This document shows positions 5,207 to 37,949 of a DNA stretch of 64,000 nucleotides, in pieces. The stretch is taken from NCBI GenBank assembly GCA_031362565.1, contig JANLSU010000048.1, forward strand, positions 3,664 to 67,663. Reading direction: 5' to 3'. Every line of letters begins with the position of its first letter. The first letter of the stretch is position 1. Source of the DNA: a bacterium. GTDB taxonomy: Bacteria; Krumholzibacteriota; Krumholzibacteriia; G020349025. A program made the position numbers and the translations under genes. The notes beneath the pieces were generated by a model. That model saw nothing but the letters and a program-made list of their open reading frames with translations. It was not told the origin of the DNA and did no database searches.

Positions 5207-5697
5207 ACGGCCACCTTCGTTCCCGGCGCAACGACTTTGCCCTCGTCGATCACGAACGTGTTGCCGCCGGTGTGGGTGACCGCGAGCCACGAGAGCGGCT
5301 TCGGCGCCGGGCCGCGGACGACCTGGCCGTCGGGACCGAAGCGCGAACCGTGGCATGGACAATGGAAGCCGTCTTCGGCCTGTTTGACGATGCAGCCCAG
5401 GTGGGTGCAGATCGTCGAAATCGCGAAGATGCCCGCCGCGTCGCGGAGAATCGCCACCGAGCGGCCCGGAGGCACGAACGCCACGCCGGGGGCGAGGGCG
5501 TCCGGCAACGTGACCCGGAATTTCTTCGACGGTGACGGCAAAACCGCCGCGCGCGGTAGGCGCGCGATGCCGAGTGTCGCGAACAGCAGAGTCGCGGTCG
5601 CCGACCAGATGGCGGCGATCCCCAGGAAATCACGCCGCGGCATCGCTTCAGGGTCGAGCCTCGAGCGTTTCGAACTCGCGGGCGCATTCGCGGTCAT
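5203..5697 (-). CDS. Rieske [2Fe-2S] protein with TAT-like signal
   Basis: Motifs CTHLGC and CPCHGS are present. The N-terminus is [31 protein letters not shown], with an RRDFL TAT-like motif. The start is taken at the internal ATG at 5697, which overlaps the stop of the upstream gene (ATGA). The ORF-track N-terminal extension is Arg-rich and lies in the upstream gene. Confidence 0.85.
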
Positions 5698-7676
5698 GCC
5701 GGTACCCTCCAAGTCACGTTGAACTGCACGCGCTCCATGCTGATGGCATCCACCGGACAGCGCATGGCACAGAGCGCGCAACGAATGCAGCGTTCTTCGT
5801 CCTTCAAGATGGCGGCGTTTGCGGCGAGATCGGCATCGGCGCCGAGCGCGTGACCGATTGCGGCCTGTAGATCGTTTGTCGGCTCGAGGTCGGTGAGCGG
5901 CACGATCTTGAGGCAGAGCGTCGGACAAACGTCGACGCAACCGCCGCAGAGCACACAGCGCGTGCCGTCGAAGACCGGCGTCACTCCGCAGTCGAGACAG
6001 CGTGACGCCTCACGCTGCGCCGCGGGCGCGTCGAAGCAAATCTCGACGCTGGCGCCTGGCGTGGCGAGGCGCTCGGCGGGTTCCAGGGTCGGAATGACGG
6101 CGCGGCGAATGTTCTCGTAGCCGGTCTCGCGCCGGTAGCGTGCCAGCGGCAAGTGTGCTTCGAGGACCTCCGCGGCCAGCGCGCGGCCCATCACCTGCGC
6201 GTAGATCGAGCGCGCCGCCTTCTTCCCCGACGCCACCGCGTCAATGAGAAGCCGCGTGCCGTGTGCCAAGTCACCGGCCACGAACACGCCGGGTGCAGAA
6301 GTCGCAAGCGTCTCGGGATCGACGCGCGGCCACCCCGGCCGCATCTCGTCGATATCCTCACCGCCCGGCCGCAAGAACGTCAGATCGGGTGCCTGCCCTG
6401 TCGCGAGCAATACGGTGTCGCAGGGCACGGTGCGCTGCTCGTCGTCGTCGAACAACGGCGCGAAGCGGCGATTCTCGTCGTACACCCGTACGCAACGCCG
6501 GAACACGACGGCCCGCACTGCGGCGCCGTCGCCACGCTGAATCTCGACCGGTCCCCAACCATTCAGGCGGTCGATGCCTTCCTCATCGCCTTCCCGGATC
6601 TCGACGGTGTCGGCGGGCATCTCCTCCAACGTCTCGAGCGATGCCAGCGTGACCCGGTGCATTCCGGGCAGGCGCGCAGCAGTGCGGGCCGTGTCATAGG
6701 CCACCTGCCGGACAACCGTGCGCGCGACGTCGTACGCAACGTTGCCACCGCCGATCACGACAACGTCGTGGCCGAGTTTCAGCGCCTCGCCGAGTGCCAC
6801 CGCACGCAGAAAATCGACACCGCCGAACACGAAGGGCCCGGCCTCGCCCGGAAGGTTCAAGCCGCGCGCCTTCTTGGCGCCAACGGCAATCAGGACTGCC
6901 GCGTAGTCGCGCCGCAGTGCCGCGAAGCTCACATCACGTCCGACCGCGACGCCACAGCGGATTTCGACCCCGAGAGCCTCGATGACCGCGATCTCGTGCC
7001 GAATGAGTTCGCGCGGCAGGCGATATTCCGGCACCCCGACGTACAACATGCCGGCAGGCACGGGTTCGATTTCGAACACGACCGGCCGGAATCCGAGGAG
7101 CGCCAAGTCGTGGGCCGCGGACAATCCCGCCGGTCCGGCACCAATGATCGCCACGCGCTGGCCGTTGGCGGGCGCGAAGCGGCCTTCAACGGCGCGATGC
7201 AGAAGCGCTGCCATCTCTTCCGCATCGGCGGCGACTTCGGGGACATAGCCACGCACCGCCGCGAGGACCGCAGCGCTTGGCTGGACACTGGCACCAAACA
7301 TCTCGCAGGCGAAACGTTTGAGAGCCCGAATCGCGATCGGCTGGTCGGCGCCCAAATAGACGCCATCGGCGTCGACGCGTGGAATGGTGCCGCGCCGGCA
7401 GGCCGCTTCACACGGCGCGCCGCAGACGCGACCGCAGATCGAAGCGAACGGATTCGGGCCGCGGGCGATGAGGTACGCTTCTTCGAAGCGCCCGGCGGCG
7501 ATGGCGCGGACGTAGCCGCGCGCGTCGGTGTGGACGGGGCAAGCACGCTGGCAGGAAATGAGGTCGCGGTGGTACCCGTCGCCGGGGACCGCCACCTGCA
7601 GCCGCGAACGCCCGAAGGGGGGTTCGGGCGTGGCGGCTTTGGCTGGCGCAGCTGAGATCCCCGGCTCTGGGCTCAT
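5694..7676 (-). CDS. GltD/NfnB/PreT-like FAD- and NAD(P)-binding oxidoreductase with an N-terminal [4Fe-4S] domain and a C-terminal 2x[4Fe-4S] ferredoxin domain
   Basis: The N-terminal Cys cluster is ISCQRACPV...[14 protein letters not shown]. Two Rossmann motifs follow: [17 protein letters not shown] and [17 protein letters not shown]. The C-terminal region reads [39 protein letters not shown] sequence lies just upstream of the ATG at 7676. This is the first gene of the operon. Confidence 0.8.
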
Positions 7677-8722: not shown

Positions 8723-9391
8723 CTACTGGGCGGCGCGACGGCGCTCAGCCAGCTTGGCTTGGCGCACCCGGGACGGCAGGGGCTGGCGGAGTGCCGCTTC
8801 GGCGATCGACGAGGCATCGACCAAGCGGTCGAGGTCGACGCCGGTTTCGATGCCCATGCCGTGCGGCATGTACACGAGGTCCTCGGTGGCGAGGTTGCCG
8901 GTGGCGCCCGGCGCGTAGGGACAGCCACCCAAGCCGCCGGTCGAGGCATCGAACACGTGCACGCCGAGACCCAGCGCCGCCAGTGCGTTCGCGAGCGCCG
9001 TGCCGCGCGTGTCGTGGGAATGCAGTGCGAGCCTCTCGACATCGAAGGCCTCCAACAACAAGCCCACGACATCGTCGACTTGTGAGGGAACGCCGACCCC
9101 GATCGTATCGCCGATCGAAATTTCCTGCACCCCGAGCGCCAACAAATCGCCGGTGACGCGCGCGACGACGTGCGGATCGACGCGCCCCTCGTACGGGCAG
9201 CTGAAGCACGTCGAAACGTAGCCCTGCACTCGCACACCGGCACTGCGCGCCCAGACGACGACCGGCCGAAAGCGTTCGATCGACCCGGCGATCGACGCAT
9301 TGATGTTGCGCTGGTTGAAGGTTTCACTGACGGCCGTGAAGACGGCTATTTCTTGCACGCCGGCGGCGAGGGCCGCATCGAGCCCCTTCTC
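8723..9391 (-). pseudogene. Truncated HMG-CoA lyase paralog (C-terminal ~220 aa only; N-terminal catalytic part replaced by unrelated sequence)
   Basis: The ORF-track protein 8723..9682 matches the intact lyase at 10494..11420 from EKGLDAALAAGVQEIAVFTA onward. Its first ~97 aa (MCLPRASSSPISR...) have no similarity to the lyase and are low-complexity. Confidence 0.6.
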
Positions 9392-9446
9392 ATAACGACC
9401 AAAGGTGGTTGCTCTGCTTGAACGCCGCGGCCCGCATGCCGCGACG

Positions 9447-10082
9447 TCAGTGACACATGCCTCCCAATCGCGATGCCAAGAGGGCCAGGTCTGAACTGTC
9501 GATGTAGCCGTCTTTGGTGTAGTCGGAACATATCGAATAGTTCGGTTGTCCGACCTGGCTGGGGAACTTGTGGGCGAACCTTCCAAACTCCTCGGAATCC
9601 ACATCGCAATTGGCCGGGAAAGTGTCACAGCCGTTCGTGCGGATCGGGAGATTGGCGATGAGGACGCCCTCGGCAAGCACACTCAAGCCGTTGGCGCACC
9701 CGCCTGCGCGTAGGGCGCCCGTAAACTGGGTCCGGCCGTTGAGGTCCGTTGGCGCGTCGGCAATATTGCCACCCGGGCACATGCAAAGAAAGCTGTTGAA
9801 GAGCACGATTTCCTGCGCCGGCACGCCAGCCAACGGTGCCCCGTTACAATTCTTGAGGTAGACCTGAATGCCAATTCCGGCTGCCGCGAATGTTTCCCCG
9901 CCGCTCGGGTCTATGGTAACGACATCATACGGCTGCCCAGTACGATACGCGCCGGTGAAGACGCGCGAGAACAACACCGTGGCATACGAGGAATCCGCAC
10001 AGACGATGCCCATTGCCGGTACAGCCCACCCGATGAGGGCCACGGCAAGCGGAAAACTCGAAAATACATTCTTGAACTGCAT
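9447..10082 (-). CDS. Secreted Cys-rich hypothetical protein with a dockerin/EF-hand-like DxxxDGxIDxxD motif near the C-terminus
   Basis: Signal peptide MQFKNVFSSFPLAVALIGWAVPAMG. Twelve Cys residues. The motif is DYTKDGYIDSSDLALLASRLG. It lies in the unique segment between the two duplication copies. Confidence 0.55.
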   Translation of the reverse strand: MQFKNVFSSFPLAVALIGWAVPAMGIVCADSSYATVLFSRVFTGAYRTGQPYDVVTIDPSGGETFAAAGIGIQVYLKNCNGAPLAGVPAQEIVLFNSFLCMCPGGNIADAPTDLNGRTQFTGALRAGGCANGLSVLAEGVLIANLPIRTNGCDTFPANCDVDSEEFGRFAHKFPSQVGQPNYSICSDYTKDGYIDSSDLALLASRLGGMCH

Positions 10083-10151
10083 GTCTTGACCCTCCGAGGC
10101 GGAGAGAAGTTGGACCGTCGCGCGACGGAAAGAATATCACATCCGCGACTG

Positions 10152-11164
10152 GCGCCCCAAAGCGAACCCGGCCACAAGCTCTTGCAAGCGAGGCGGCCGG
10201 GCTTCAGGGGCTCACGAGGAGCCCAACTCTTGCGCGAAGCAAACTCAACGTCGCCTCTTCGGGACGGGCGCCGGGCCTGCGCACCGTCCATCGGATCCGC
10301 CGCGCCGAAACACGCCGACCGAGGAATCATCAAGTCCTTCGCGACGGCGAATGCGGTCGAGTTCCACCGCGCTCCGGAACGTACCGCGTAATTTGTCGTG
10401 CACTAGCGTCAGTATCGCGATCGAGACGGGGTGAGGTCAACTTGCAGTTGATCGTCATGCAAAAGGAACGGGCGGCGCGGCGGGCGGCGGCAGCTACCGG
10501 GCGGCGCGGCGGCGTTCGGAGAGCTTGGCTTGGCGCACCCGGGACGGCAGGGGCTGGCCGAGGGCCGCTTCGGCGATCGACGAGGCATCGACTAACCGGT
10601 CGAGGTCGACGCCGGTCTCGATGCCCATGCCGTGCAGCATGTACACCAGGTCCTCGGTGGCGAGGTTGCCGGTGGCGCCCGGCGCATAGGGACAGCCACC
10701 CAAGCCACCCGCCGAGGCATCGAAGACGTGCACCCCGAGGCCAAGTGCCGCCAACACGTTTGCGAGCGCCGTGCCGCGCGTGTCGTGGAAATGCAGCGCC
10801 AGGGTTCCGACATCGAAGGTCTCCAGCAGCAAGCCCACGACATCGACGACTTGCGAGGGAACACCGACCCCGATCGTGTCGCCGATCGAAACTTCCTGGA
10901 CGCCTAGTGCGAACAACTCGCCGGTCACCTGCTGCACGGCGCGCGGATCGACGCGCCCCTCGTACGGGCAGCCGAAGCACGTCGAGACGTAGCCCCGCAC
11001 TCGCACCCCGGCAGCGCGCGCCCGGACGACGACGGGACGAAAGCGTTCGATCGATTCGGCGATCGACGCATTGATGTTGCGCTGGTTGAAGGTTTCACTG
11101 GCGGCCGTGAAGACGGCAATTTCTTGCACGCCGGCGGCGAGGGCCGCATCGAGCCCCTTCGCGT
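10152..11164. repeat. Copy 2 of the segmental duplication (overlaps the intact HMG-CoA lyase gene 3-prime portion and its downstream element)
   Basis: See copy 1. It contains the same paired hairpin element at 10156..10240. Confidence 0.7.
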
Positions 11165-11420
11165 TGGGAACGAGGGCTGGATAGCGCGTTCCCGCCTGGC
11201 GGCGAAGGCGGGCGTACACCGTGTCCGAGGCCGCCATCTGTGGAATGGCCTGCGGGCTCACGAACGCGCCGGCCTCGACCGCCGGTAAACCCGCCGCCGC
11301 GAGGGCCTCGATGAAACGCACTTTGACGTCGACGTCGAGCGCCGCGGCGACGTTCTGCAGACCATCGCGCGGTCCGACCTCGTAAACCGTCACGTGCGCT
11401 GGCAGGATGCGGGAACTCAT
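10494..11420 (-). CDS. Hydroxymethylglutaryl-CoA lyase
   Basis: MSSRILPAHVTVYEVGPRDGLQN...HFHDTRGTALANVLAALGLGVHVFDASAGGLGGCPYAPGATGNLATEDLVYML matches the HMGL family signature. The start is chosen at the internal ATG at 11420, which overlaps the stop of the upstream gene (ATGA). Confidence 0.85.
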   Translation of the reverse strand: MSSRILPAHVTVYEVGPRDGLQNVAAALDVDVKVRFIEALAAAGLPAVEAGAFVSPQAIPQMAASDTVYARLRRQAGTRYPALVPNAKGLDAALAAGVQEIAVFTAASETFNQRNINASIAESIERFRPVVVRARAAGVRVRGYVSTCFGCPYEGRVDPRAVQQVTGELFALGVQEVSIGDTIGVGVPSQVVDVVGLLLETFDVGTLALHFHDTRGTALANVLAALGLGVHVFDASAGGLGGCPYAPGATGNLATEDLVYMLHGMGIETGVDLDRLVDASSIAEAALGQPLPSRVRQAKLSERRRAAR

Positions 11421-11908
11421 ACCGGTTCCGCCGCCAAACGCACCAACGTGACGCCGCTTGCGACTTGCGTGCCGGCGACGGCGTGCACGTGTTCGACGAT
11501 CCCGGCGCGCGGCGCGACGATTTCGTACTGCATCTTCATGGCTTCGAGAACGACCAACGTCTGATCCTTGAGAACCGTATCGCCGGCCGCCACCAAGACC
11601 TTCAACACCGCACCCGGCATGGGAGCGGTGAGTTCGCCGGGCGGCGGACCACCGCGCTTGCGGCTCGGGGTTTCGAGACGCAGATGGTGCACGTGGCCGT
11701 CGATCCAAATCCAGCGCTCGTCGCCCGACTTGGCGACGATGCAGCGCCGCTGCCGTCCCGCTTCGCGCAACACGTAGTCGCCCGGGCCCAGTTGATCCCA
11801 GGTGAAGATGCGCTCCCCGGCCGCGGTGGCGAGATGCAAGCGGTCGCCGTCGCGGCGTGCGGCGATTTCAACAAGCGTGTCGCCATTGCGAAAGCGGCGC
11901 GTGATCAT
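11417..11908 (-). CDS. Biotinyl (BCCP) domain protein. It is the C-terminal part of a methylcrotonyl/acyl-CoA carboxylase alpha subunit, encoded separately from the BC domain.
   Basis: Biotin attachment motif EAMKM in ...TLVVLEAMKMQYEIVAPRAGIV. The ATG at 11908 overlaps the stop of the biotin carboxylase ORF (ATGA). The upstream part of this ORF overlaps the BC coding region. Confidence 0.6.
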   Translation of the reverse strand: MITRRFRNGDTLVEIAARRDGDRLHLATAAGERIFTWDQLGPGDYVLREAGRQRRCIVAKSGDERWIWIDGHVHHLRLETPSRKRGGPPPGELTAPMPGAVLKVLVAAGDTVLKDQTLVVLEAMKMQYEIVAPRAGIVEHVHAVAGTQVASGVTLVRLAAEPV

Positions 11909-13440
11909 GATCGGCCCCCGCCGTTCGCGTGCCGCCAGGCGCCGAGCGCCGTCCATGGAGTCGCTGCCACGCTCGTGTCGCTGGTTTGCGCACCGGTCGC
12001 GCCGGCGCCGACGCGCGGTCCGGCCGCATCGTGCAATGCCACCGCCGCCAGCGCCTCGTCCGGCAGCGGCACGGACTCGGGCGTCCAGTCCGCCAAATGC
12101 TCGGCCAGGAAATGCGTCGTGAGATCGCCGCGCTGAAATGCGTCGACCTCGAGAATGGCCTGCAAGTAATCGAGATTGGTGGGCACGCCCAAGATCACGA
12201 ACTCGGCGAGCGCGCGCCGCATGCGGGCCGTGGACTCGGCGCGGTCACGGCCGATCGTGATCACCTTGGCCAGCATCGGGTCGTACTGGATCGGCACGTC
12301 GAGCCCGTCGCGCAGCGCGCCGTCGACCCGCACGCCTGGCCCGCCGGGATGGCGAATGAGCAGGATCCTGCCGCCGGCCGGCAGAAAACCGCGTGCCGGC
12401 TCCTCGGCGTAAACCCGGCATTCCAGAGCGTGGCCGCGTTGCACCGGGTGGAGCGCTGCGGCCGGCATCGGGAGGCCGGCGGCGACTTCGAATTGCATCC
12501 GCACGAGATCGAGTCCGGTCACCATCTCGGTGATCGGATGCTCGACCTGCAAACGGGTGTTCATTTCCAGGAAGTAGAAAGCGCCATGCGCGTCGAGCAT
12601 GAACTCGACAGTACCGGCGCCGCGATAGTCGACGGCGCGCGCCGCCGCGACCGCCGCTTCACCCATGCGGGCCCGCAACGCCGCATCGACGACCGGCGAA
12701 GGGGTCTCTTCGACGATCTTCTGGTGCCGGCGCTGGATCGAACACTCGCGTTCGAAGAGATGCACCGTGTTGCCATGCGCATCCGCGAACACCTGAAACT
12801 CGATATGGCGCGGCCGCTCGAGGTATCTCTCGAGGTAGATGGTGCCGTCACCGAACGCCTTCTCGGCTTCGCCGCGCGCCAAGCCGGCGGCGCGTTCGAA
12901 CTCGGCGGCCTCGTGAACGACGCGCATGCCCTTGCCGCCGCCCCCGGCGCTCGCTTTGACGAGGACCGGAAAGCCCATCTTGGCCGCGGCCTTGGCGAGC
13001 ACCCCGACGTCCTGAGTCTTGCCATCGGTGCCCGGCACGACCGGCACGCCGGCCTTTTGCATGAGCGCCCGGGCGCCGATCTTGCTGCCCATGGCCTCGA
13101 TCGCATCCGGCGGCGGTCCAATGAACGTCAGCCCGGCGGCGGCGCAACGCCGCGCGAAAGTCGCGTTCTCGGACAAGAATCCGTAGCCCGGGTGCACGGC
13201 ATCGCAACCGGCCGCGGCGGCGATTTCCAGCAACCGGTCTTGGTTCAAATACGACTTCGCGGCCTCGGCGGGCCCCAAGAGGTAGGCCTCATCGGCGCGC
13301 GTCACGTGCGACGCGTGCGCGTCGGCGTCCGAGTACACCGCCACCGCTTGAATGCCAAGTTCGCGCAACGTCCGCTGAATGCGGATGGCGATCTCGCCGC
13401 GGTTGGCGATCAGCACTTTGCGAAACAGTGGTTGCTTCAT
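11905..13440 (-). CDS. Biotin carboxylase domain of acyl-CoA (methylcrotonyl-CoA-type) carboxylase alpha subunit
   Basis: MKQPLFRKVLIANRGEIAIRIQRT...ATP-grasp motifs...the C-terminus PWTALGAWRHANG resembles the BC-BT linker. The start is at internal MKQPLF. The upstream ORF-track extension is Arg/Pro-rich junk. Confidence 0.8.
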   Translation of the reverse strand: MKQPLFRKVLIANRGEIAIRIQRTLRELGIQAVAVYSDADAHASHVTRADEAYLLGPAEAAKSYLNQDRLLEIAAAAGCDAVHPGYGFLSENATFARRCAAAGLTFIGPPPDAIEAMGSKIGARALMQKAGVPVVPGTDGKTQDVGVLAKAAAKMGFPVLVKASAGGGGKGMRVVHEAAEFERAAGLARGEAEKAFGDGTIYLERYLERPRHIEFQVFADAHGNTVHLFERECSIQRRHQKIVEETPSPVVDAALRARMGEAAVAAARAVDYRGAGTVEFMLDAHGAFYFLEMNTRLQVEHPITEMVTGLDLVRMQFEVAAGLPMPAAALHPVQRGHALECRVYAEEPARGFLPAGGRILLIRHPGGPGVRVDGALRDGLDVPIQYDPMLAKVITIGRDRAESTARMRRALAEFVILGVPTNLDYLQAILEVDAFQRGDLTTHFLAEHLADWTPESVPLPDEALAAVALHDAAGPRVGAGATGAQTSDTSVAATPWTALGAWRHANGGGRS

Positions 13441-13564
13441 CGTCCGCAGGCTAACACCTGGCCGACATGCGTCGCAACTGCAGCGCGGGGGCGCGGCCGG
13501 AATCGCATTCACGGATGGACGTAGTTGCGCAGCTGGAGCACCCGGAGGCCACCGGAAGAGCCCC

Positions 13565-14035
13565 TCAACGATAGAAATCGACCCATTCGAAGTGGCAGGC
13601 GCGGGGGCCGGCTTGCGCGAAGTCGGCGGAGGAATCGATTTCGAAGCCGTCACTCGTGGGCCGCAACGGCATGAAGAGCGGATCTTCGGGCCCGAGTGCC
13701 TGGCTCGCGGCAGTGCCACGCCGGCCGGTTTCCGAAACGCTGCCGTCGTGGTGCACCGCGATCTCGACGCGGCGATCGGCGTATTCGAAATGAAAACCTT
13801 CGAGCGCCCGGACGTGCAGCCGGATCTGCAGCGCCTGACCGCGGCCCGCAAGCGCCAGATCGGCCCGGCCGATGCCGGAGCCGGCGACCGTCACGATGGT
13901 GCAGGACGCCGTTTGCGAGGTTTCAATGCGCGTTGATTCGGATGCCGAGGTGACGCGGACTCGCGGTGGCAGAGATCCGGCGCACGCCGCGCCCAAAACG
14001 AGGCCCATCGCCGCCAGAGCCGATGAACGCCGCAT
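13565..14035 (-). CDS. Small secreted hypothetical protein (156 aa) between carboxylase genes
   Basis: Signal peptide MRRSSALAAMGLVLGAACAGS. High GC3 consistent with coding. No recognisable domain. Confidence 0.35.
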   Translation of the reverse strand: MRRSSALAAMGLVLGAACAGSLPPRVRVTSASESTRIETSQTASCTIVTVAGSGIGRADLALAGRGQALQIRLHVRALEGFHFEYADRRVEIAVHHDGSVSETGRRGTAASQALGPEDPLFMPLRPTSDGFEIDSSADFAQAGPRACHFEWVDFYR

Positions 14036-14052
14036 CGCGGTGGCACCTCACA

Positions 14053-15663
<1,611 letters not shown>

Positions 15664-15820
15664 GGGGCGCGATCTTACACTACGCCTCCCGAACGGTCAC
15701 GCGCGCAGCGCGGCGCTGGTTTTCGCCGCCGCTTGACGCTCGGACGCGGCGCTGTCTAGGCTCGCGGCGTTCGGTCGCCCCGCCGGCTTGGCCCCCCTCG
15801 TACGATTCGTGGAGGCTGTC

Positions 15821-16975
15821 GTGAAACGCATCCAGGTCGCGCTCTTGCTCCTCGGGCTCGGCGCCAGCGTCCAGACTGCCGACGCGATCCCGCGCTACAC
15901 CGCGCGCTACGGCCAGGCTTGCACTCTCTGCCATGTGAACCCAAGCGGCGGCGGCATGCGCAGCCTTTATGCCAGCCAGTACATCGTGCCCAAAGAACTG
16001 GCGATGAAGCGGCTTACCGACGAAGAGATCGCCAAGATCCAGCCGAAGGTGAGCGAGAGCATCACGCTCGGCGCCGACCTGCGAAGCGCGCACTTCCACT
16101 CCACCGCGGACCAGGTGGCGCGCAATTTCTTTTTGATGCAGGGCGATCTGTACGCGCAATTCTCGATCGACGAGCGCTACTCGGCCAATATCGATGTCGA
16201 CCAGGAGGGCAGCGTCGAGATCTACGCTCTGGCCTGGGTCCTGCCGTGGAGCGGCTACGTGAAGGCCGGGCGCTTCACGCCGGTGTTCGGGTGGAAGTTT
16301 CCCGATCACAATCTGTTCAGCCGCGAGGAACTGAGTTTCGATCAGCCGTTCAACACCGATGCGGGAATCGAAATTGGCTTCTACCCGAAACACGTGTCGC
16401 TGTGGGCCTCGGTGCTGAACGGTGAACCGCCGGTCAACACCCGCTTCGATACCAACGACGACCTGGCCTATGTCGTGGGTGCGCTGTCGCAATTCAAAGT
16501 GCGGCAGTTCGGGATCGGATTGGGCGGCTCGTTCCTCTACAACCAGAAGGATCCGGGGCGGACGAGCGCCAGTGAAGGCGGCGGCCCGCCGGGCCGGCGC
16601 ACCCAAGGCGGTCCTTTTGGTTCATTCACCTGGGGCCCCTGGAGCTGGCTTTGGGAAGTCGACGCGACGCGGCTTCTCATCCCCAACGTGCGGGTCAAGA
16701 CCAAGCTCCTCACGACGCACGAACTGGCGTACGAAGTGCGCCAGGGGGTCGACATCGTCGGCAACTACAACTGGGTCGATCGCAACGTCGACCTGGGGAC
16801 CGGGACCAAGCAGCGCTTCGGGCTGGGTGTCGACGTGACTCCGGTGCCGTTCGTGGAGTTGCAGGCGCAGTTGAACCGCTATGTTGCCACCGGGCACGAC
16901 GCGGCCCAGGCCCTGCCCGACCTCTTCGAGCCCAGCTACTGGCGCTCGGAAGTTCAGATCCACCTCTTTTATTGA
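15821..16975 (+). CDS. Cyc2-like fused monohaem cytochrome c / outer-membrane beta-barrel protein
   Basis: A GTG at 15821 is preceded by GGAGG. Signal peptide VKRIQVALLLLGLGASVQTADA. A single CTLCH haem motif lies ~20 aa after the signal. The remainder has amphipathic beta-strand periodicity and ends ...EVQIHLFY (C-terminal aromatic). This architecture matches the Cyc2 family of outer-membrane iron-oxidase/electron conduits. Confidence 0.65.
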   Translation: MKRIQVALLLLGLGASVQTADAIPRYTARYGQACTLCHVNPSGGGMRSLYASQYIVPKELAMKRLTDEEIAKIQPKVSESITLGADLRSAHFHSTADQVARNFFLMQGDLYAQFSIDERYSANIDVDQEGSVEIYALAWVLPWSGYVKAGRFTPVFGWKFPDHNLFSREELSFDQPFNTDAGIEIGFYPKHVSLWASVLNGEPPVNTRFDTNDDLAYVVGALSQFKVRQFGIGLGGSFLYNQKDPGRTSASEGGGPPGRRTQGGPFGSFTWGPWSWLWEVDATRLLIPNVRVKTKLLTTHELAYEVRQGVDIVGNYNWVDRNVDLGTGTKQRFGLGVDVTPVPFVELQAQLNRYVATGHDAAQALPDLFEPSYWRSEVQIHLFY

Positions 16976-17111: not shown

Positions 17112-17687
17112 ATGCTGTGTCGCGTTGCTTTGGCGTTCGCCGGCGTCGCGCTCGCCGCCTCGGCGTCCGCCACACCGTTCGTTCTCGTCCCCACCGCCAG
17201 CAAGGTGCAATTCGAATCCAAGGCGCCGATGGAGTCGTTCACGGGCAAGACGCAGAAGGTTTCTGGCGCCGTGGATCTGGATCCGGCGGCATTGGCCGAC
17301 AGCATCCTGGTTTCGGTCGCCGTCGACATGGCGAGTTTGGAGACCGGCATGGCGCTGCGTGACCGGCACATGCGCGAGAATCACCTGCAGGTCGACAAGT
17401 TTCCCACCGGGACATTCGCCGGCGGCAATCTTGCGGACCTTTCTGCCACGTCGCTCACTTCGGGCGCGCCCGTCACCGGCACGATCACCGGGCAACTTAC
17501 GCTGCACGGTGTGGAGCACCAGATTACGGCGCCGGTGGAACTGAGTTTGAAGGACGGCAGCCTGCATGTCGTGGCGCACTTCGCCGTCAAACTCGCCGAC
17601 TATGCGATCCCGCGCCCGCAAATGCTGATGATGAAGCTCGGAGAAACGCAAACTGTGACCGTCGACGTCACAGGGCGCACGCAGTAA
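17112..17687 (+). CDS. YceI-like periplasmic protein
   Basis: Signal MLCRVALAFAGVALAASASA, then KVQFESKAPMESFTGKTQKVSGAVDLD...LTLHGVEHQITAPVELS, typical of the YceI family. The start is at the internal ATG at 17112. Confidence 0.75.
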   Translation: MLCRVALAFAGVALAASASATPFVLVPTASKVQFESKAPMESFTGKTQKVSGAVDLDPAALADSILVSVAVDMASLETGMALRDRHMRENHLQVDKFPTGTFAGGNLADLSATSLTSGAPVTGTITGQLTLHGVEHQITAPVELSLKDGSLHVVAHFAVKLADYAIPRPQMLMMKLGETQTVTVDVTGRTQ

Positions 17688-17707
17688 CGCCATTGGGGTT
17701 GAACTTC

Positions 17708-19183
17708 ATGATGCACGCCGCGTCGCCGCACCGGCTCCGCACCAGCCGCCTGACGGCTCGACTGGCGTTCGTGGGTGCCGGCGCCTTGCTCCTCAGTTGC
17801 GCCGATTTCGGCGACCCCTTCGTGCCGTCGGTCGCGACCGTGGCGGTGCGCACGACCAACCAAGTAGAGGCCGTGATTGGCGACGACGTCGTGCTTGCGG
17901 CCGACGTTCGCGACGCGGCCGGCCGGCCCATTGACGGTGCACAAGTGACGTGGCTGGCATCCGATCTCGGTGTGGTGCAAGTGCAACCGCAAGGTGCCAC
18001 CGGGGCGCTCGTCAGCGCCCGCGCCGCGGGAACGGCCACTGTCGTCGCGACCTGTCGCGGGGTGGAGAGCACGCCAATCGAAATCACCGTGCGCGTAGCC
18101 CTGATCCAGTCGATCACCATCACGTCGCCACCCAACGCGGTGACGATTCCCATCACTCGATCGGTGCAGTTTACAGCGCGTGTCGTCGATGAACGCGGCA
18201 ACGTCGTGACGGGCGCCAGGGTTGTTTGGAGTGCGTCGGCTCCGGCCGTAGCCATCGACTCGACGGGATTTGCGACCGGCAGCGTCGAGGGCGCGGCCGA
18301 CGTTACTGCGACACTCGGCACCGTGCACAGTGCGCCGGTGCATGTAGTGGTCCGCTTGCTCGCGACGTCGTCGGTGACGATCACGTCACCGGCCAGTCCG
18401 GCGACGATTCCGGTAACGCAGTCGGTGCAATTCGCGGCCACCGTTGTCGACGAGTTTGGCAACTTCGTCGACAACGCCACGATCGTGTGGAACTCGTCGA
18501 ACGCCGCCGTGGCCATCGACACCCATGGACTCGCGACCGGCAGCGCCGAGGGCACCGCCGATGTCACCGCGACGAGTGGGAACGTGCAAAGCGTCCCGGT
18601 TCAGGTGGTGGTCCGGCCACTCGCGACCGGGTCGGTCGAAATCACGAGCCCAGCGAGCCCCGTCAGCCTTTTGACCAACCAGACCGTGCAGTTCGCCGCC
18701 ACGGTCCGTAATGAACTCGGCGCCGTCATGGTCAACGCGCCGGTGGCGTGGAATGCTTCGAGTGCCGCGGTGTCGATCGGCCCGAACGGCCTGTTGCGCG
18801 CCATTGCCGGTGGCCCCGCAACCGTGACCGCGACGAACGGCGGCGTGCAGTCGGCGCCGGTGACGGTGAACGTCACGGCCATCAGCTTCGCGACCGCGGT
18901 GCAGCCGATCTTCGACTCGTTCTGCGTGCGCTGCCACGGCTTCAACGGTAACCTGACCCTCTCGGACAACGCGTACGATCGCATCGTAAATGAGATCTCC
19001 GGGCAAAACCCGTCGCTCTTCCTCGTCAAACCCGGCGACCCGGACAACAGCTACATCTACTTGAAAATGTCCGGCTGCAGCGCCCGCGGCTGTGCCGGCG
19101 ACCGCATGCCGCCCGGCAGCACAGTTGGACCGGCGGCGCTGCAAACCATGCGCGACTGGATTCTGGGCGGCGCGGCGCGCTGA
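17708..19183 (+). CDS. Lipoprotein with four tandem Big_2 (bacterial Ig-like) domains and a C-terminal PSCyt1-like cytochrome c domain
   Basis: Lipobox ALLLSCAD. Four ~80-aa repeats (ITVRVALIQSITITSPPNAVTIPITRSVQFTARVVDERGNVV... x4) are also visible as DNA tandem repeats from ~18040 to 18700. The C-terminus AVQPIFDSFCVRCHG...MRDWILGGA resembles the Planctomycete cytochrome C (PSCyt1) domain. The start could be TTG 17693 or ATG 17708. Confidence 0.7.
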   Translation: MMHAASPHRLRTSRLTARLAFVGAGALLLSCADFGDPFVPSVATVAVRTTNQVEAVIGDDVVLAADVRDAAGRPIDGAQVTWLASDLGVVQVQPQGATGALVSARAAGTATVVATCRGVESTPIEITVRVALIQSITITSPPNAVTIPITRSVQFTARVVDERGNVVTGARVVWSASAPAVAIDSTGFATGSVEGAADVTATLGTVHSAPVHVVVRLLATSSVTITSPASPATIPVTQSVQFAATVVDEFGNFVDNATIVWNSSNAAVAIDTHGLATGSAEGTADVTATSGNVQSVPVQVVVRPLATGSVEITSPASPVSLLTNQTVQFAATVRNELGAVMVNAPVAWNASSAAVSIGPNGLLRAIAGGPATVTATNGGVQSAPVTVNVTAISFATAVQPIFDSFCVRCHGFNGNLTLSDNAYDRIVNEISGQNPSLFLVKPGDPDNSYIYLKMSGCSARGCAGDRMPPGSTVGPAALQTMRDWILGGAAR

Positions 19184-19331: not shown

Positions 19332-22076
19332 ATGTCGTTCGCGTCACGCTGCGTTACACCAGTGGGACTCGCTCTCGCGCTCGCACTGCACGCCGTACCA
19401 GGGCATGCCGGCTACGTCAACTTCGAGAGCCAGCAGGTGCATCCGATCGCCTTGACGCCCGACGGCACGAAGTTGCTCGCGGTCAACACGCCGGACGGCA
19501 AACTCGCGGTTTTCAGCGTCAACGGCGGGAATCCGAGCCTGCTCTTCGAAACCGCCGTCGGCATCGAGCCCGTGAGCGTCGCCGCCGAGAGCAATACCCG
19601 CGCCTGGGTCGTGAACCACGTTTCGGACACGGTCAGCTTGGTCGACTTGCTGAGCGGCAATGTCGTCGAGACGCTGGCCGTCGGCGACGAACCGGCCGAT
19701 GTCGTCTTCGCCAACGGCAAAGCCTTCGTGTCGGTGTCGCAAGAGGACGCGGTCAAGATCTACTCGGTCGCGAATCCGGCCGCGCCGCCGGTCGTCGTGC
19801 CGATCTTCGGCAGCGATCCGCAAGCGCTCGCCCGCAATGCCGCCGGCACGCGCGTCTATGTCGCGGTCTTCGAAAGCGGCAATCAGACGACGATCGCCTC
19901 GGGAACCGATGTCGTCAGTCATGGTGGACTGCCGGCCCCGAACCCCAGCGGCCGGCCGAACGTCGGACTCGTCTTGAAATACGTCAACGGCCACTGGGTG
20001 GACGAAATCAACCGGAACTTCGACAACAGCCATCCGTACACCCTTCCCGACCATGACGTCGCGATCCTGGATGCGACGGCCGGGGTGCCGGCTCCACAGT
20101 ACGTGGACGGCTTGGGCACGCTGCTCTTCAATCTCGCGGTGCATCCGGTCTCGGGCAAGCTCTACGTCACCAATACGGAAGCGCTGAATCAAATCCGCTT
20201 CGAGCCTGCTCTGCGCGGCCAGTTCCTGCGCACCCGCGTTTCGATCGTCGACCCGAACGTGCCGGCGGTGCGTTCGCTCGTCGATCTCAATCCGCACATC
20301 AATTACGGAGTCACTCCGGGACCGCCCTCGGAGACCAGCCAGAGCCTGTCGCAACCGGGCGGGATCGCCTTCCAAGCGGCGGGTGGCGTCGGGTATGTCA
20401 CGGCGCTCGGTTCCGCCAAGGTCGCGGTCCTCGACGATGCCGGCAACGTGACGTCGCGCATCGGCGTCGGCCAGGGCCCGAGCGGACTCGCGCTCGACGA
20501 GACCAATCACCGGCTCTACGTTCTCAACCGCTTCGAAGAAACGATCAGCATCGTCAACACCAATACCCGCGCTGTCGACCACGCGGTGTCCTTGGGATAC
20601 GACCCGAGTCCGCTGACGGTCAAGAACGGCCGCCGCTTCTTGTACGACGGCCAATTGTCATCGGGGCACGGCGATCTGGCGTGCGCGTCGTGTCACGCGG
20701 GCGGCAATCTCGATGCGATCGCCTGGGACCTCGGAGATCCGAACGGCGCGTTCCAGCCGGCGCCGCCGAACCAATTGGATCCGCTGTTGCAAGGCTTCCA
20801 TGCGATGAAGGGCCCGATGACGACGCAATCGCTGCGCGGCCTCGCCGGCACCCAACCCTTCCATTGGCGTGGCGATCGCGCCGACTTCGAGAATTTCAAC
20901 GGTGCGTTCGTGTCACTCATGGGACGTGGGACACAGATTTCGGGCGCCGACATGCAAGCGTTCAAGGATTTCGTCTTTACGATCAAGTACCCGGCGAACC
21001 CCGGCCAGAACTTGGATCGCACCTTTCCGAATCCCGCCAGCGGCCCGAGCCCCGAACGCGGCCGGCAGGCCTTCCTGAACAACATTCTCGATGGCCCGTT
21101 TCGCTGCGTGCAATGCCACGCGCTGCCAACAGGTACGAGCGGTCAATTGACCGACCGCCTGGCGTTGCAGGCGCCGCAGGACATGAAGATTCCGCAGTTG
21201 CGCAATCTCTACGAAAAAACCGGTTTGACGTTCACGGCGGGCGAAAAGAAGCGCGGCTTCGGCTTCATCCACGATGGTTCGGAGCCGACGCTGCTCGAAT
21301 TCTTGCGGCTGCCGGTGTTCACTTTCCCGAGCGACGCCATGCGCCAAGACATCGAGGCTTTCCTGCTGACGTTCGACACCGGGACCGCGCCGGCAGTCGG
21401 CGTGCAGCGCACCGTGTATGCGAGCAATCGCAACGATTTGGCCACCGTACAGTGGATCGAAACACTCATCGCGCAGGACCAAGCCGGCAACTGCGACTTG
21501 ATCGTCAAGGGGCGCTTGAACGGCCAGGCACGCGGTTTCGTCTATGACGGCGCCGGAATGTTCCGCTCGGATCGCGCCTCCGAGCCGTTGATGGCCAAAG
21601 ATTTCCTGCGCGCCTTCGCCGGCACCGGATCCGAACTCACGTACACCGGTGTGCCGCCGGGCTCGGGTACGCGCTCCGGCATCGACCGCGACGAAGACGG
21701 GTACCCGGACCGCACCGAGATCGATGCGGGTTCGGATCCGGCCGATCCGGCATCGACACCCACGCCCGTCGCCAACGGCCCGAACGGCAGCAGCAACGGC
21801 GATGCGACGCTGTTCGCCAGCTATCCCAATCCGGCCCGCGACACCGCGCGGCTGTCCTTCGAATTGGTGGCGCATACCAACGTGCGCTTGCGCATCTATG
21901 CCGCCGATGGCCGGCTCGTACGCGCCCTGTGGGATGGCGCCGCCGGTCCGGGCTTGGTGCGACTGACTTGGGACGGTACGAACGACGGCGGGCATCGCGC
22001 CGCTTCGGGGCGCTATTTCTACCGCCTCGACACGCCGACGCATTCTTTCGCGCGGCCGTTGCTCCTCGTGCGTTGA
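19332..22076 (+). CDS. Secreted beta-propeller (YVTN-type) - dihaem cytochrome c peroxidase/MauG-like - TSP3-like - por_Secre_tail/FlgD-Ig C-terminal domain protein
   Basis: Signal MSFASRCVTPVGLALALALHAVPGHA. Propeller repeats (KLYVTNTEA, RLYVLNRFEETISIVNT). Two haem motifs, CASCHAG and CVQCHAL, with CCP-like context (FHWRGD; PQLRN..GFIHDGSEPTLLEFL). Ca-binding-like DRDEDGYPDRTEID. The C-terminal ~85 aa follow the pattern YPNPA..T.L.FEL...V.L.IY...G..V..LWDG...GG.RAASGRYFYRL. The start is at the internal ATG. The ORF-track extension upstream is Arg/Pro-rich. Confidence 0.8.
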   Translation: MSFASRCVTPVGLALALALHAVPGHAGYVNFESQQVHPIALTPDGTKLLAVNTPDGKLAVFSVNGGNPSLLFETAVGIEPVSVAAESNTRAWVVNHVSDTVSLVDLLSGNVVETLAVGDEPADVVFANGKAFVSVSQEDAVKIYSVANPAAPPVVVPIFGSDPQALARNAAGTRVYVAVFESGNQTTIASGTDVVSHGGLPAPNPSGRPNVGLVLKYVNGHWVDEINRNFDNSHPYTLPDHDVAILDATAGVPAPQYVDGLGTLLFNLAVHPVSGKLYVTNTEALNQIRFEPALRGQFLRTRVSIVDPNVPAVRSLVDLNPHINYGVTPGPPSETSQSLSQPGGIAFQAAGGVGYVTALGSAKVAVLDDAGNVTSRIGVGQGPSGLALDETNHRLYVLNRFEETISIVNTNTRAVDHAVSLGYDPSPLTVKNGRRFLYDGQLSSGHGDLACASCHAGGNLDAIAWDLGDPNGAFQPAPPNQLDPLLQGFHAMKGPMTTQSLRGLAGTQPFHWRGDRADFENFNGAFVSLMGRGTQISGADMQAFKDFVFTIKYPANPGQNLDRTFPNPASGPSPERGRQAFLNNILDGPFRCVQCHALPTGTSGQLTDRLALQAPQDMKIPQLRNLYEKTGLTFTAGEKKRGFGFIHDGSEPTLLEFLRLPVFTFPSDAMRQDIEAFLLTFDTGTAPAVGVQRTVYASNRNDLATVQWIETLIAQDQAGNCDLIVKGRLNGQARGFVYDGAGMFRSDRASEPLMAKDFLRAFAGTGSELTYTGVPPGSGTRSGIDRDEDGYPDRTEIDAGSDPADPASTPTPVANGPNGSSNGDATLFASYPNPARDTARLSFELVAHTNVRLRIYAADGRLVRALWDGAAGPGLVRLTWDGTNDGGHRAASGRYFYRLDTPTHSFARPLLLVR

Positions 22077-22288: not shown

Positions 22289-22852
22289 ATGCGTGCCTTT
22301 CTCGGGCTCGCCGCCGCCATCGTGGCATGTGCTACGGTCGCGAGCGCCGAGTCGTCCATCTGCGGCGATTGCTACCTGGGCGTCTATGACGATCTCGCGA
22401 TGACACGCGTGTCCGGCGTGGCGTCGTCCTTTCAGGTGAAGAGTCTCTACCTTGGGTTGCGTTTAGGGCCGGGCGTGAACATTACGGATATCGATTTCTT
22501 CGCGTCGTATCCGGCGGGATTCGAAGTGATCGACGTCGAGTCCTATGTCCCGGGCGCGACCTACGAGACCGTGGGGCATGTGGCGCACGTCCACTGGCCG
22601 AGTTGCGTCGGTGGAAGCCTGGCGCTGTTCCGCGTCCGAGTGATCACCACCACCATGCCTCACAACGCGGTAGTGCAATTGCAAAGTGTGCTTGCAAAGC
22701 CCTGCGGCGGTGCGCCGGTTGAAGCATGGAGGATCCCAGCGGGTTGCTACGTACTCAACCCCGGCAGCAGCCGGCCGCCGTGCGCCACTGCGGTCGAGGC
22801 GTCGACATGGTCCCTTGTGAAAGGCCTTTTCAGAACGCTTGATTCGCGCTAG
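22289..22852 (+). CDS. Secreted hypothetical protein; distant member of the IPAGY...W..VK.LYR C-terminal-module family
   Basis: Signal MRAFLGLAAAIVACATVASA. Contains RIPAGCYVLN and ends ASTWSLVKGLFRTLDSR, paralleling the C-termini of the four paralogs at 28603..31743. Confidence 0.5.
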   Translation: MRAFLGLAAAIVACATVASAESSICGDCYLGVYDDLAMTRVSGVASSFQVKSLYLGLRLGPGVNITDIDFFASYPAGFEVIDVESYVPGATYETVGHVAHVHWPSCVGGSLALFRVRVITTTMPHNAVVQLQSVLAKPCGGAPVEAWRIPAGCYVLNPGSSRPPCATAVEASTWSLVKGLFRTLDSR

Positions 22853-25456: not shown

Positions 25457-26854
25457 ATGGCGGACTTGCGCGTGCATTTCGCCGGCATCGAGTCCCCCAA
25501 TCCGTTCTGGCTCGCCTCGGGGCCGCCCACCAATTCGGGCGATCAAGTGCGCCGGGCCTTCGATCTGGGATGGGGCGGCGCGGTGTGGAAAACGGTCGGC
25601 GAGCCCATCGTCAACGTTTGCTCCCGTTACTCGTCGGTCGACTTCGGCGGCCAGCGCATGATGGGCCTCAACAACATCGAACTCATCAGCGACCGGCCGA
25701 TCGTCGAGAACCTGCGCGAGATCGCCGCCGTCAAGAAACAGTATCCGCGCCACACCGTCATCGTCTCGCTGATGGTGGAATCGACCCGCGAAGCGTGGCA
25801 CGACATCGTCAAGCGCGCCGAAGACACCGGTGCCGACGGGCTCGAGCTCAACTTCGGATGTCCGCATGGCATGAGCGAGCGCGGGATGGGCGCCGCAGTC
25901 GGCCAAGTGCCGGACTACACCTGCCAAATCGTCGAGTGGGTCAAGGAAGTGGCGCGCACGCCGGTCATCGTCAAGCTGACGCCGAACGTGACCGATGTGC
26001 GGTATATCGGCCGCGCCGCCGTCAAAGCCGGCGCCGATGCCGTGTCGCTCATCAACACCATCAACAGCATCACCGGCATCGATCTCGAGGACTTCGTGCC
26101 GCGGCCGCGGGTCGGCACATTGTCGTCGCACGGCGGCTACTGCGGCCCGGCGGTCAAACCCATCGCTTTGAACCTGGTGTCGCAGATCGGCACCGACGCC
26201 GATTGCCGGCGCATCCCGATGTCGGGGATCGGTGGCGTGACGTCATGGACCGATGCGGCCGAGTTCATCGCCCTCGGTTGTTCTACGGTGCAGGTTTGCA
26301 CCGCCGCCATGCACTACGGATTCCGCATCGTCGAGGACCTGGTGGACGGCCTCTCGGGGTGGATGGATGAACGCGGCTACGAGACGATCGAAGACTTCCG
26401 GGGCCGGGCGCTGCCGCACGTCAGCGATTGGGGCCATCTCGATCTCAACTATAAGATCGTGGCGCATATCGACACCGCCAAATGCATCGGCTGCCAACTG
26501 TGCTACGTCGCCTGTCAAGACACTGCACATCAGTGCATCTACGTGGGCGATGCGCTGGAAACGAACGGCACGCCGCGGGCGCCCAAGGGCGCCTCGGCAA
26601 GCGCCGGCCATGCACCGGCTTTCGTGCCCGAGGCGTTCCGGGTGCGCGGTGAACCGATGCGCGCGCCGGTCACCGGGCACGGCGTTTTGGGGCCGGAGAA
26701 CCTCGCGGCGCGCATCCCATGGGTCAAGGAAGACGACTGCGTCGGTTGCAACCTGTGCATGTTGGTGTGTCCGGTACCCGAGTGCATCACCATGGTCGAG
26801 CTCGACACCGGCCGTAAACCCGAGAGCTGGAACGAACGCCAGCGCCGCAAGTAA
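25457..26854 (+). CDS. Dihydropyrimidine dehydrogenase PreA-like subunit (DHOD-fold TIM barrel plus C-terminal 2x[4Fe-4S])
   Basis: GLELNFGCPHGMSERGMGAAVG, SLINTINSITGIDLE, then CIGCQLCYVACQD and CVGCNLCMLVCP ferredoxin motifs. Confidence 0.8.
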   Translation: MADLRVHFAGIESPNPFWLASGPPTNSGDQVRRAFDLGWGGAVWKTVGEPIVNVCSRYSSVDFGGQRMMGLNNIELISDRPIVENLREIAAVKKQYPRHTVIVSLMVESTREAWHDIVKRAEDTGADGLELNFGCPHGMSERGMGAAVGQVPDYTCQIVEWVKEVARTPVIVKLTPNVTDVRYIGRAAVKAGADAVSLINTINSITGIDLEDFVPRPRVGTLSSHGGYCGPAVKPIALNLVSQIGTDADCRRIPMSGIGGVTSWTDAAEFIALGCSTVQVCTAAMHYGFRIVEDLVDGLSGWMDERGYETIEDFRGRALPHVSDWGHLDLNYKIVAHIDTAKCIGCQLCYVACQDTAHQCIYVGDALETNGTPRAPKGASASAGHAPAFVPEAFRVRGEPMRAPVTGHGVLGPENLAARIPWVKEDDCVGCNLCMLVCPVPECITMVELDTGRKPESWNERQRRK

Positions 26855-37394: not shown

Positions 37395-37949
37395 TTGAAA
37401 CAACGGCGGCTGGTTTCGATCGCGACGCTGGCGGTGACGCTGGCGGCCGCGGTGGGCGGTCTGGCGGTAGTGGGGGCCGGTTCCGAACGCACCGCCCCGG
37501 TCGCCGCCGAGGTGCGCCCGGCACCGCAATCCTGCAAACCCGTGGCGCCGGTGCATGTGACGCTCGAGCCAGGCGCCGCGCCCGGCGTGTGGCATGTGCA
37601 CCTGAATGCGGTCGCGAGTGCGAACGACGTCACCGTCGTCGTGGGGTCGAACCGTGGCGACGTCGCGGCCGGCAGCCTCGTGGTCTGGCACGGCAGCCTC
37701 GAGCCCGGTGCCGGTCAGGCGATCGAAGCCCGGTTCCCGGTTGCCGACGATGTGACCAGCGTTTGGGCCGAAGCTCGGATCGCATCCGCGCCCGGCGTGA
37801 CGCAGCGCGACCTGGCGGTACTCGAGGTGCTGAACGGCAAGGCAGCGGCCCGAACTGCGAGTTCCGCCGCCACCGGGCGGGTCGTCACCGACCCGCAGAC
37901 CGGCGAGTCCGTGGTCGAGTTTCAGGGTGAAACGGCGGGCAAGCGATGA
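37395..37949 (+). CDS. Signal-anchored hypothetical protein (184 aa) co-transcribed with the metalloprotease
   Basis: TTG start with GAGGT upstream. Hydrophobic N-terminus LVSIATLAVTLAAAVGGLAVVGAG. Its stop overlaps the next start (ATGA). Confidence 0.45.
   Translation: MKQRRLVSIATLAVTLAAAVGGLAVVGAGSERTAPVAAEVRPAPQSCKPVAPVHVTLEPGAAPGVWHVHLNAVASANDVTVVVGSNRGDVAAGSLVVWHGSLEPGAGQAIEARFPVADDVTSVWAEARIASAPGVTQRDLAVLEVLNGKAAARTASSAATGRVVTDPQTGESVVEFQGETAGKR

Follow-up and report, generated by a model that had tools for sequence, protein, structure and literature searches.

A Cyc2-related family of fused monohaem cytochrome c-porins with conserved YceI and lipoprotein cytochrome c neighbours

The stretch of DNA analysed here, 64,000 nucleotides of a Krumholzibacteriota contig (JANLSU010000048.1, positions 3,664 to 67,663; hereafter the window), encodes a porin with a single c-type haem motif fused to its N-terminus. 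We found that this porin belongs to a large family whose members occur in a conserved three-gene neighbourhood together with a periplasmic lipocalin of the YceI family and a lipoprotein carrying a monohaem cytochrome c domain. That neighbourhood is the main new result of this work. By profile comparison and modelled fold the porin is truly, if remotely, homologous to Cyc2 and shares its design. We nevertheless treat its family as a sister of Cyc2 inside a wider Cyc2 superfamily, and not as part of Cyc2 itself, because the strict motifs that define Cyc2 are absent. An earlier reading of the same DNA, made from the sequence alone, had proposed a Cyc2-like fused monohaem cytochrome-porin within an outer-membrane and periplasmic electron-transfer module, and we take up its claims below where our results bear on them.

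Results

The porin has two conserved neighbours

We sampled the neighbourhoods of 80 metagenome loci with family members, together with four long contigs (L121-L124), and scored all open reading frames (ORFs) of these loci with hidden Markov models (HMMs) built from the neighbour genes in the window. A YceI gene was found directly downstream of the porin, on the same strand, in 54 of the 61 evaluable loci; it was nearby in 5 more and absent in 2. The gene was also present in each of the four long contigs. As a surrogate set of canonical Cyc2 genes, we back-translated the published Cyc2 motif and scanned it across one genome per species, which gave 120 loci that include Mariprofundus, several Zetaproteobacteria, Sideroxydans and Acidithiobacillus. 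Among these 120 loci there was a single weak match to YceI, and the lipoprotein cytochrome c neighbour was found in none.

The lipoprotein gene is not kept as a whole. What stays beside the porin in most loci is the lipobox region and a C-terminal CxxCH domain of about 100 amino acids (aa; residues ~390-494 in the window), with the consensus VSYAxDIQPIFxxxCxxCH...GGLDL...VvPGDPxxSvLYxKv...rMP...tWIleGAxNN. Elsewhere this domain forms a small lipoprotein or is carried on different Ig-like spacers. Against PSCyt1 (PF07635; gathering threshold 22), the domain of the window scored 12.5 bits and those of relatives 14.7-21.0 bits; against Cytochrome_CBB3 (threshold 27), scores were 17-24 bits. We regard it as a class-I-like monohaem domain, for which the PSCyt1 label is plausible but unproven.

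Gene orders were counted in the 31 loci whose sequence extends 1.3 kb or more upstream of the porin and 2.2 kb or more downstream of it. With an HMM of the domain, the partner cytochrome adjoined the porin in 22 of them. The order was cytochrome-porin-YceI in 15 loci, porin-YceI-cytochrome in 6 and YceI-cytochrome-porin in 1; a further 8 had porin and YceI only, and 1 had the porin alone. In the literature that could be searched, no paper had YceI and Cyc2 together, and we did not find a description of the porin-YceI-cytochrome partnership.

The spacers that carry the cytochrome domain differ widely between loci. There may be none, or ASH/HYDIN-type Ig, Fn3-like or four Big_1/Big_2 domains (window 17693-19183 compared with L121 7552-7965, L156 469-1593 and L209 3591-4259), and every version of the partner has a lipoprotein signal. 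Such different spacers, all on proteins with a lipoprotein signal, suggest that the cytochrome is held on a tether of variable length.

The haem motif is invariant in a large family

A word-indexed search returned 202 homologs of the porin. The exhaustive HMMER search, which covered 1.84 billion cluster representatives, returned 886 at E <= 1e-3 and 81 at E <= 1e-30. The named relatives are uncultured Krumholzibacteria, Eisenbacteria and Gemmatimonadota, known as metagenome-assembled genomes (MAGs). All conservation figures given here refer to an alignment of 219 full-length members, down to ~27% identity.

The CxxCH motif sits in a 26-residue block that is the most conserved part of the protein, with the consensus A-x-P-R-[YF]-[STA]-A-R-[YT]-x-Q-x-C-x-L-C-H-x-N-P-[ST]-G-G-G-x-R. 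All 219 members have C34, C37, H38, G43, R47, G84, R88, G150 and G157. Conservation is 99% for P24, D86 and R168, 98% for P41 and 97-98% for M106, H163 and H381; M46 is conserved in 59% only, and A22, the last residue of the signal peptide, in 88%. The residues M106, H163 and H381 are candidates for the distal haem ligand. Family hits without CxxCH were all 339 aa or shorter and, in the hit tables that give alignment coordinates, aligned from query residue 42 onward. Because they match only from that residue, they look like N-terminally truncated fragments from contig ends.

The family is related to Cyc2 but distinct from it

In the definition of Keffer et al. (2021, PMC8406198), a Cyc2 protein has a signal peptide and only one CXXCH, with an AXPXFAR[Q/K][T/Y] motif just ahead of the CXXCH and PXL about four residues after it, and carries a 16-strand barrel that was modelled on OprP/OprO; sequences were included if they had the upstream motif and were at least 365 aa long. 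From our 120 Cyc2 loci we took the 88 complete ORFs of 350-600 aa as a motif-defined Cyc2 set. An hhalign comparison of the porin family with this set gave a probability of 98.25% and an E-value of 2.6e-14 over 336 collinear columns (query 4-355, template 11-393). The N-terminal haem segment alone aligned with a probability of 97.7% (E 2.4e-12) and the barrel alone with 80.7% (E 1.3e-5), while a column-reversed barrel control gave 0.5%. The family HMM scored the 88 Cyc2 sequences at a median of 23.6 bits (maximum 51.8) and the Cyc2 HMM scored the 219 family members at a median of 23.7 bits. Reversed decoys reached 8 bits or less, and with the family HMM all 88 Cyc2 sequences outscored all decoys. 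The window porin itself received 29 bits from the surrogate Cyc2 HMM, in two pieces.

The two families also have the register of the mature N-terminus in common, with A at -12, P at -10, an aromatic residue at -8 and Y or T at -4 from the first cysteine (A-x-P-x-aromatic-x-x-x-[Y/T]-x3-CxxCH). The window porin has the signal peptide, the single N-terminal CXXCH and the OprP/OprO-like C-terminal barrel of 16 strands that characterize Cyc2. At 384 aa it is above the published length limit, though most Cyc2 proteins have at least 400 aa, and the family is shorter overall (median 373 aa vs 446 aa in the Cyc2 set). Its sequence A-I-P-R-Y-T-A-R-Y keeps the A, P, aromatic and Y positions of the Cyc2 motif and their spacing, but not FAR[Q/K].

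It is in these motifs and in the profile scores that the families part. Unlike Cyc2, the family has Y-[ST]-A-R in place of FAR[Q/K] and N-P-x-G-G-G-x-R in place of PxL. The pattern CxxCH-xx-P-x-GG was present in 196 of 219 family members and in 0 of 88 Cyc2 sequences; PxL followed CxxCH in 82 of the 88, with a looser spacing of x3-5. With the family HMM, no family member scored below 240 bits and no Cyc2 sequence above 52; with the Cyc2 HMM, no Cyc2 sequence scored below 125 bits and no family member above 62, so that the scores do not overlap. The published Cyc2 pipeline would discard the family sequences because they lack the motif on which it filters. Overall, the name Cyc2-like that the sequence-only reading had given to the porin is supported with respect to architecture, fold and remote homology.

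Canonical motif-bearing Cyc2 genes were seen in Krumholzibacteriia (L045), Gemmatimonadetes (L005 and L026) and Longimicrobiales (L043). Because canonical Cyc2 thus occurs in the same phyla as the YceI-paired family, the two probably coexist as functionally distinct paralogous lines.

The porin gene encodes a signal peptide, a haem motif and a predicted 16-strand barrel

The features of the locus are collected in Table 1. Because a canonical GGAGG lies five nucleotides upstream of the GTG at 15821, the start coordinate that had been read from the sequence is correct. The protein begins with MKRIQVALLLLGLGASVQTADA and continues, after the AxA cleavage site, with IPRYTARYGQACTLCHVNPSGGG...; the mature N-terminus is IPRYTARYGQACTLCHVNPSGGGMR, so that the full start reads MKRIQVALLLLGLGASVQTADA followed by IPRYTARYGQACTLCHVNPSGGGMR. 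The CTLCH motif (C34, C37 and H38) lies 12 residues past the predicted cleavage site, in the mature chain, and it contains the only two cysteines of the porin. The C-terminus is ...SEVQIHLFY. The last residue is aromatic, as is usual for outer-membrane barrels. Scans of Pfam and NCBIfam gave no model that matched the porin.

Table 1. Features of the porin locus in the window (64,000 nucleotides; positions are those of the window).
Position	Strand	Feature	Support or remark
15811..15815	+	Shine-Dalgarno sequence GGAGG	5 nt before the GTG start; read from the sequence
15821..16975	+	Fused monohaem cytochrome c-porin gene, Cyc2-superfamily 'NPxGGG' type, 384 aa	Intact ORF
15821..15886	+	Signal peptide, aa 1-22, cleavage after A-D-A	Predicted by reading the sequence
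15884..15961	+	Haem-binding segment A-I-P-R-Y-T-A-R-Y-G-Q-A-C-T-L-C-H-V-N-P-S-G-G-G-M-R	CxxCH at 15920-15934
16061..16969	+	16-strand beta-barrel, aa 81-383	AlphaFold2 secondary structure
17112..17687	+	YceI-family lipocalin with signal peptide	Pfam YceI 7.2e-26
17693..19183	+	Lipoprotein with LLLSC lipobox, four Ig-like Big_1/Big_2 domains and C-terminal monohaem cytochrome c domain	Pfam Big_1 1e-21, Big_2 8e-12
18860..19180	+	PSCyt1/Cytochrome_CBB3-like monohaem cytochrome c domain (CVRCH ... MP)	Pfam matches below threshold
19332..22076	+	914-aa protein: YVTN beta-propeller, two CxxCH, TSP3 and FlgD_ig/T9SS-like tail	Lineage-specific accessory

An AlphaFold2 model of the porin, built on a 53-sequence alignment, had a mean predicted local distance difference test (pLDDT) score of 84.3 and a predicted template-modelling (pTM) score of 0.82. 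In the model, residues 81-383 contain exactly 16 beta-strands, and the haem motif lies ahead of them in a short helical segment at the N-terminus. A long loop of the barrel (residues 153-179) bears the conserved H163, and M106 and H381 are also in the barrel region. When the model was compared with the PDB using Foldseek, the top four matches included OprP (2o4v; E 9e-12, TM-score 0.59) and OprO (4rjw), which are the structural templates published for Cyc2 (PMC8406198). The fold was that of general and specific 16-strand porins and not that of FadL-type lipid channels. By sequence, a family-profile search of the PDB found no porin at E < 0.4, the only one being 2POR at E 0.44.

The sequence-only reading had described a signal peptide followed closely by a single CTLCH and then beta-barrel sequence ending in ...IHLFY, and both parts of this description were borne out, the second by the structural model that it had named as a check. 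It had also stated that a missing barrel, or a CxxCH within the cleaved signal region, would speak against it, and neither was the case.

Distant members have other partners

Three distant members of the family (P0186, P0193 and P0264) are 414-436 aa long, have the sequence PRFAAR[TN]G...NPxGGGMR and are without YceI. They sit in operons of a cupredoxin, the porin and a di-haem cytochrome c, an arrangement that resembles Cyc2 with Cyc1 and rusticyanin. The full layout begins with the cupredoxin, followed in some cases by a Cys-rich protein of 81 aa with one CxxCH, then the porin and the di-haem cytochrome c, and in some cases ends with a small cytochrome c (L205 1542-4029, L207 4316-7569 and L211 2750-5238). 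A fourth, P0150, has the porin and the lipoprotein cytochrome only. Several other branches of the family thus also have a periplasmic c-type cytochrome as a partner, whereas YceI goes, in the sampled branches, with the main subfamily to which the window belongs.

Other genes in the window

Next to the lipoprotein is the gene for a 914-aa propeller protein with two CxxCH motifs. Full-length homologs were found only in L128, L129, L133 and L135, beside the closest relatives of the porin. At the first haem the protein resembles CCP_MauG, but the 22.4 bits fall short of the gathering score (25.6), and the PDB sequence closest to it was MbnH (6e1c, E 0.16). It may be a cell-surface di-haem enzyme. 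The sequence-only reading had placed a dihaem 'CCP' in one module with YceI and the 'PSCyt1 lipoprotein'. The latter two hold up as conserved partners, in the case of the lipoprotein through its C-terminal cytochrome domain, but the dihaem gene is ruled out as part of the core module by its restriction to the closest relatives and by its sub-threshold CCP similarity. The propeller region also weakly matches hydrazine-synthase beta and beta-gamma models.

The ~25 kb that we inspected around the porin hold genes for leucine and pyrimidine catabolism and glycosyltransferase genes; no genes for a terminal oxidase, carbon fixation or other lithotrophy functions were seen there. A leucine-catabolism block lies divergent from the porin (8723-15663, minus strand), with HMGL-like lyase genes, a biotin carboxylase with a biotinyl domain and a 536-aa acyl-CoA carboxyltransferase. 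Dihydropyrimidine-dehydrogenase-like genes (Fer4_20 with Pyr_redox_2; DHO_dh with Fer4) are at 5694-7676 (minus strand) and 25457-26854 (plus strand), and such genes were also near the porin-YceI pair in a 37%-identical locus (L122, 11314-14049), which hints at wider synteny or a shared lineage. Several large secreted proteins end in FlgD_ig/Por_Secre_tail-like domains (window 37946-40102, plus strand; L121 6408-7367; L123 4199-5692), and this domain is probably the lineage's surface-sorting signal. Two secreted multi-Cys proteins, of 187 aa (22289-22852, plus strand) and 211 aa (9447-10082, minus strand), had no Pfam match.

Discussion

The architecture of the porin, the conservation of its haem motif, its modelled fold, its remote relation to Cyc2 and its two conserved neighbours together lead us to favour, with fair though far from full confidence, an electron conduit of the outer membrane that works with novel periplasmic partners. 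One c-type haem would be covalently bound at the very start of the mature protein, fused to the 16-strand barrel and packed against or inside the pore, so that electrons would cross the outer membrane by a minimal conduit. The pore would give a small redox-active solute access to the haem, Fe2+ being the best-precedented candidate. Electrons would then pass, in one direction or the other, between this haem and the lipid-anchored periplasmic cytochrome with its PSCyt1-like domain; in the window, the four Ig-like spacer domains could span much of the periplasm. The periplasmic YceI lipocalin would couple the porin-cytochrome pair to a quinone or another lipophilic redox carrier. The sequence-only reading had already suggested extracellular electron transfer or an iron-redox module from the gene content, and two of the three neighbours that it named are indeed conserved partners; the iron-redox role is an inference.

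The part proposed for YceI draws on work on other systems. YceI lipocalins bind ubiquinone-8 (UQ-8) and other polyisoprenoids, and in many Gram-negative bacteria YceI is genetically linked or fused to cytochrome b561; in that system, quinone on the lipocalin quenches lipid peroxyl radicals and is proposed to be recycled by the cytochrome (PMC9113575). YceI-like domains also occur with c-type cytochrome domains in Cbp2D (PMC8981238). By analogy, YceI may hand quinol or quinone to the haem-porin and its cytochrome and so serve a respiration-type electron flow.

Several observations weigh against an electron conduit of this kind, or against carrying over to it what is known of Cyc2. The pattern P.FAR[QK][TY] was matched by 0 of 219 family members, and CxxCH-x3-PxL likewise by 0 of 219, the window having CH-V-N-P-S-G-G-G. 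With these motifs absent and the HMM scores cleanly separated, the function of Cyc2 is not simply transferable to the family. Even among canonical Cyc2 proteins, iron oxidation is regarded as verified for Cluster 1 alone, and Cluster 2 proteins are not trusted as iron oxidases unless their context supports it (PMC10734462). Eight of the 31 well-flanked loci are without an adjacent cytochrome gene. The named relatives come from uncultured MAGs only, and we know of no demonstrated role for YceI in any porin-cytochrome system.

The tight link to YceI could also point to an antioxidant system of the envelope, which would be the outer-membrane equivalent of the pair formed by LcoA (a cytochrome b561) and BcnA (a YceI lipocalin). 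Quinol carried by YceI would quench lipid peroxyl radicals or oxidants, the haem-porin and the cytochrome c would recycle the quinol or dispose of electrons, and in the lineage of the window the system would be linked to a di-haem peroxidase-like enzyme. YceI with a membrane cytochrome is an established module of defence against peroxidation, with quinone recycling proposed (PMC9113575). In our loci YceI is very closely linked to the porin (54 of 61), a linkage that canonical Cyc2 loci lack apart from the one weak match, and the window and its closest relatives add the propeller/di-haem protein with its weak CCP/MbnH similarity. However, the cytochrome in question is a c-type haem-porin of the outer membrane and is no relative of cytochrome b561. 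The similarity to CCP falls short of its threshold, the gene concerned is not conserved across the family, and the distant members without YceI sit in classical cupredoxin/cytochrome c chains. On balance we consider an antioxidant system unlikely. Somewhat less likely again, in our view, is a bona fide Cyc2-type Fe(II) oxidase for energy conservation, a fourth Cyc2 cluster that would pass electrons from dissolved Fe2+ via the cytochrome c lipoprotein to a terminal oxidase. The architecture and the remote homology agree with this, as do the adjacent periplasmic cytochrome c, the cupredoxin and di-haem cytochrome c genes beside distant members, and the demonstration that Cyc2 PV-1 of Mariprofundus ferrooxydans oxidises Fe2+ (PMC8406198). 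The Cyc2-defining motifs are missing, however; the inspected surroundings of the gene contain ordinary catabolic genes and no visible lithotrophy genes, the family is reported from uncultured lineages, and the Cyc2 pathway as known offers no role for a near-obligate YceI partner.

Two further explanations treat the haem as secondary. In one, the barrel is a channel for lipophilic molecules (isoprenoids, quinones or tetrapyrroles), YceI is their carrier and the haem is a cofactor, sensor or gate. YceI lipocalins do bind polyisoprenoids, the gene order is tight, and a porin with a periplasmic binding protein is common transport logic; but a passive lipid channel would not be expected to have an invariant motif for covalent haem or a cytochrome c gene beside it, and the fold is not of the FadL type, so that we hold this to be very improbable. 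The other, raised as an objection by the sequence-only reading itself, is an ordinary porin with a fortuitous CxxCH. The barrel does resemble ordinary porins and lacks a Pfam or NCBIfam family, but the CxxCH is invariant in 219 relatives, which rules this explanation out for practical purposes; the motif also uses both cysteines of the porin, stands in its most conserved block and lies in a segment that aligns to the Cyc2 haem motif (E 2.4e-12).

The electron conduit that we favour can be set beside several known systems. Cyc2 of Acidithiobacillus ferrooxidans, of Mariprofundus ferrooxydans PV-1 and of clusters 1-3 in general resembles the window porin in its signal peptide, in its single CxxCH ~12 residues into the mature chain, in its OprP/OprO-like barrel of 16 strands with an aromatic C-terminus, and in a remote homology that extends over nearly the full length. 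The family differs in being shorter and in its conserved YceI and lipoprotein cytochrome c neighbours. The phosphate-selective porins OprP and OprO (2o4v and 4rjw), the best structural matches to the barrel at a TM-score of ~0.6, have no haem domain and are 12% identical in sequence to the window porin. Cyc572 of Leptospirillum, which we liken to it by description only, is likewise a fusion of a porin-like barrel with a CxxCH at the N-terminus, and is reported to be only ~11% identical even to Cyc2 (PMC10654088). The MtrAB, MtoAB and PioAB systems share the logic of an outer-membrane electron conduit with periplasmic cytochrome partners, but consist of separate polypeptides with a 26-strand barrel and a decahaem wire, whereas the family has one haem and 16 strands in a single fused protein.

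With regard to YceI, the nearest parallel is LcoA with BcnA/YceI (Naguib et al. 2022, PMC9113575), where the lipocalin is also tightly and widely paired with a membrane haem protein. LcoA is a four-helix di-haem b561 of the inner membrane, in contrast to an outer-membrane beta-barrel with a haem c that is predicted to be covalently attached. Unlike LcoA-BcnA, the family has a third partner, the cytochrome c, and no fusion proteins were seen. No cytochrome b561 gene was seen in the annotated family loci, where the linked cytochrome is the c-type haem-porin.

Cyc2 is the main genetic marker from which microbial iron oxidation is inferred in metagenomes. The family described here is a large sister clade of the same design, with at least 886 clusters at 50% identity. 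Surveys that rely on motifs would miss it because the published motif filter excludes it, and its function is not to be assumed from that of Cyc2. For specialists in extracellular electron transfer or iron cycling the pairing with YceI is unexpected. The near-obligate combination of the porin with YceI and a tethered cytochrome c offers a concrete, testable module of three proteins, which could reveal how an outer-membrane conduit with one haem is wired to the periplasm and could show what YceI lipocalins do beside membrane cytochromes. A bolder proposal, which we put forward tentatively and think unlikely to hold, is that quinone- or quinol-loaded YceI is the mobile periplasmic redox partner of the haem-porin and shuttles between the quinone pool of the inner membrane and the cell surface. 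If true, it would constitute a new outward or inward route of extracellular electron transfer, or a circuit that detoxifies lipid radicals at the outer membrane, and it would give the widespread YceI proteins, whose function is unclear, a defined biochemical role.

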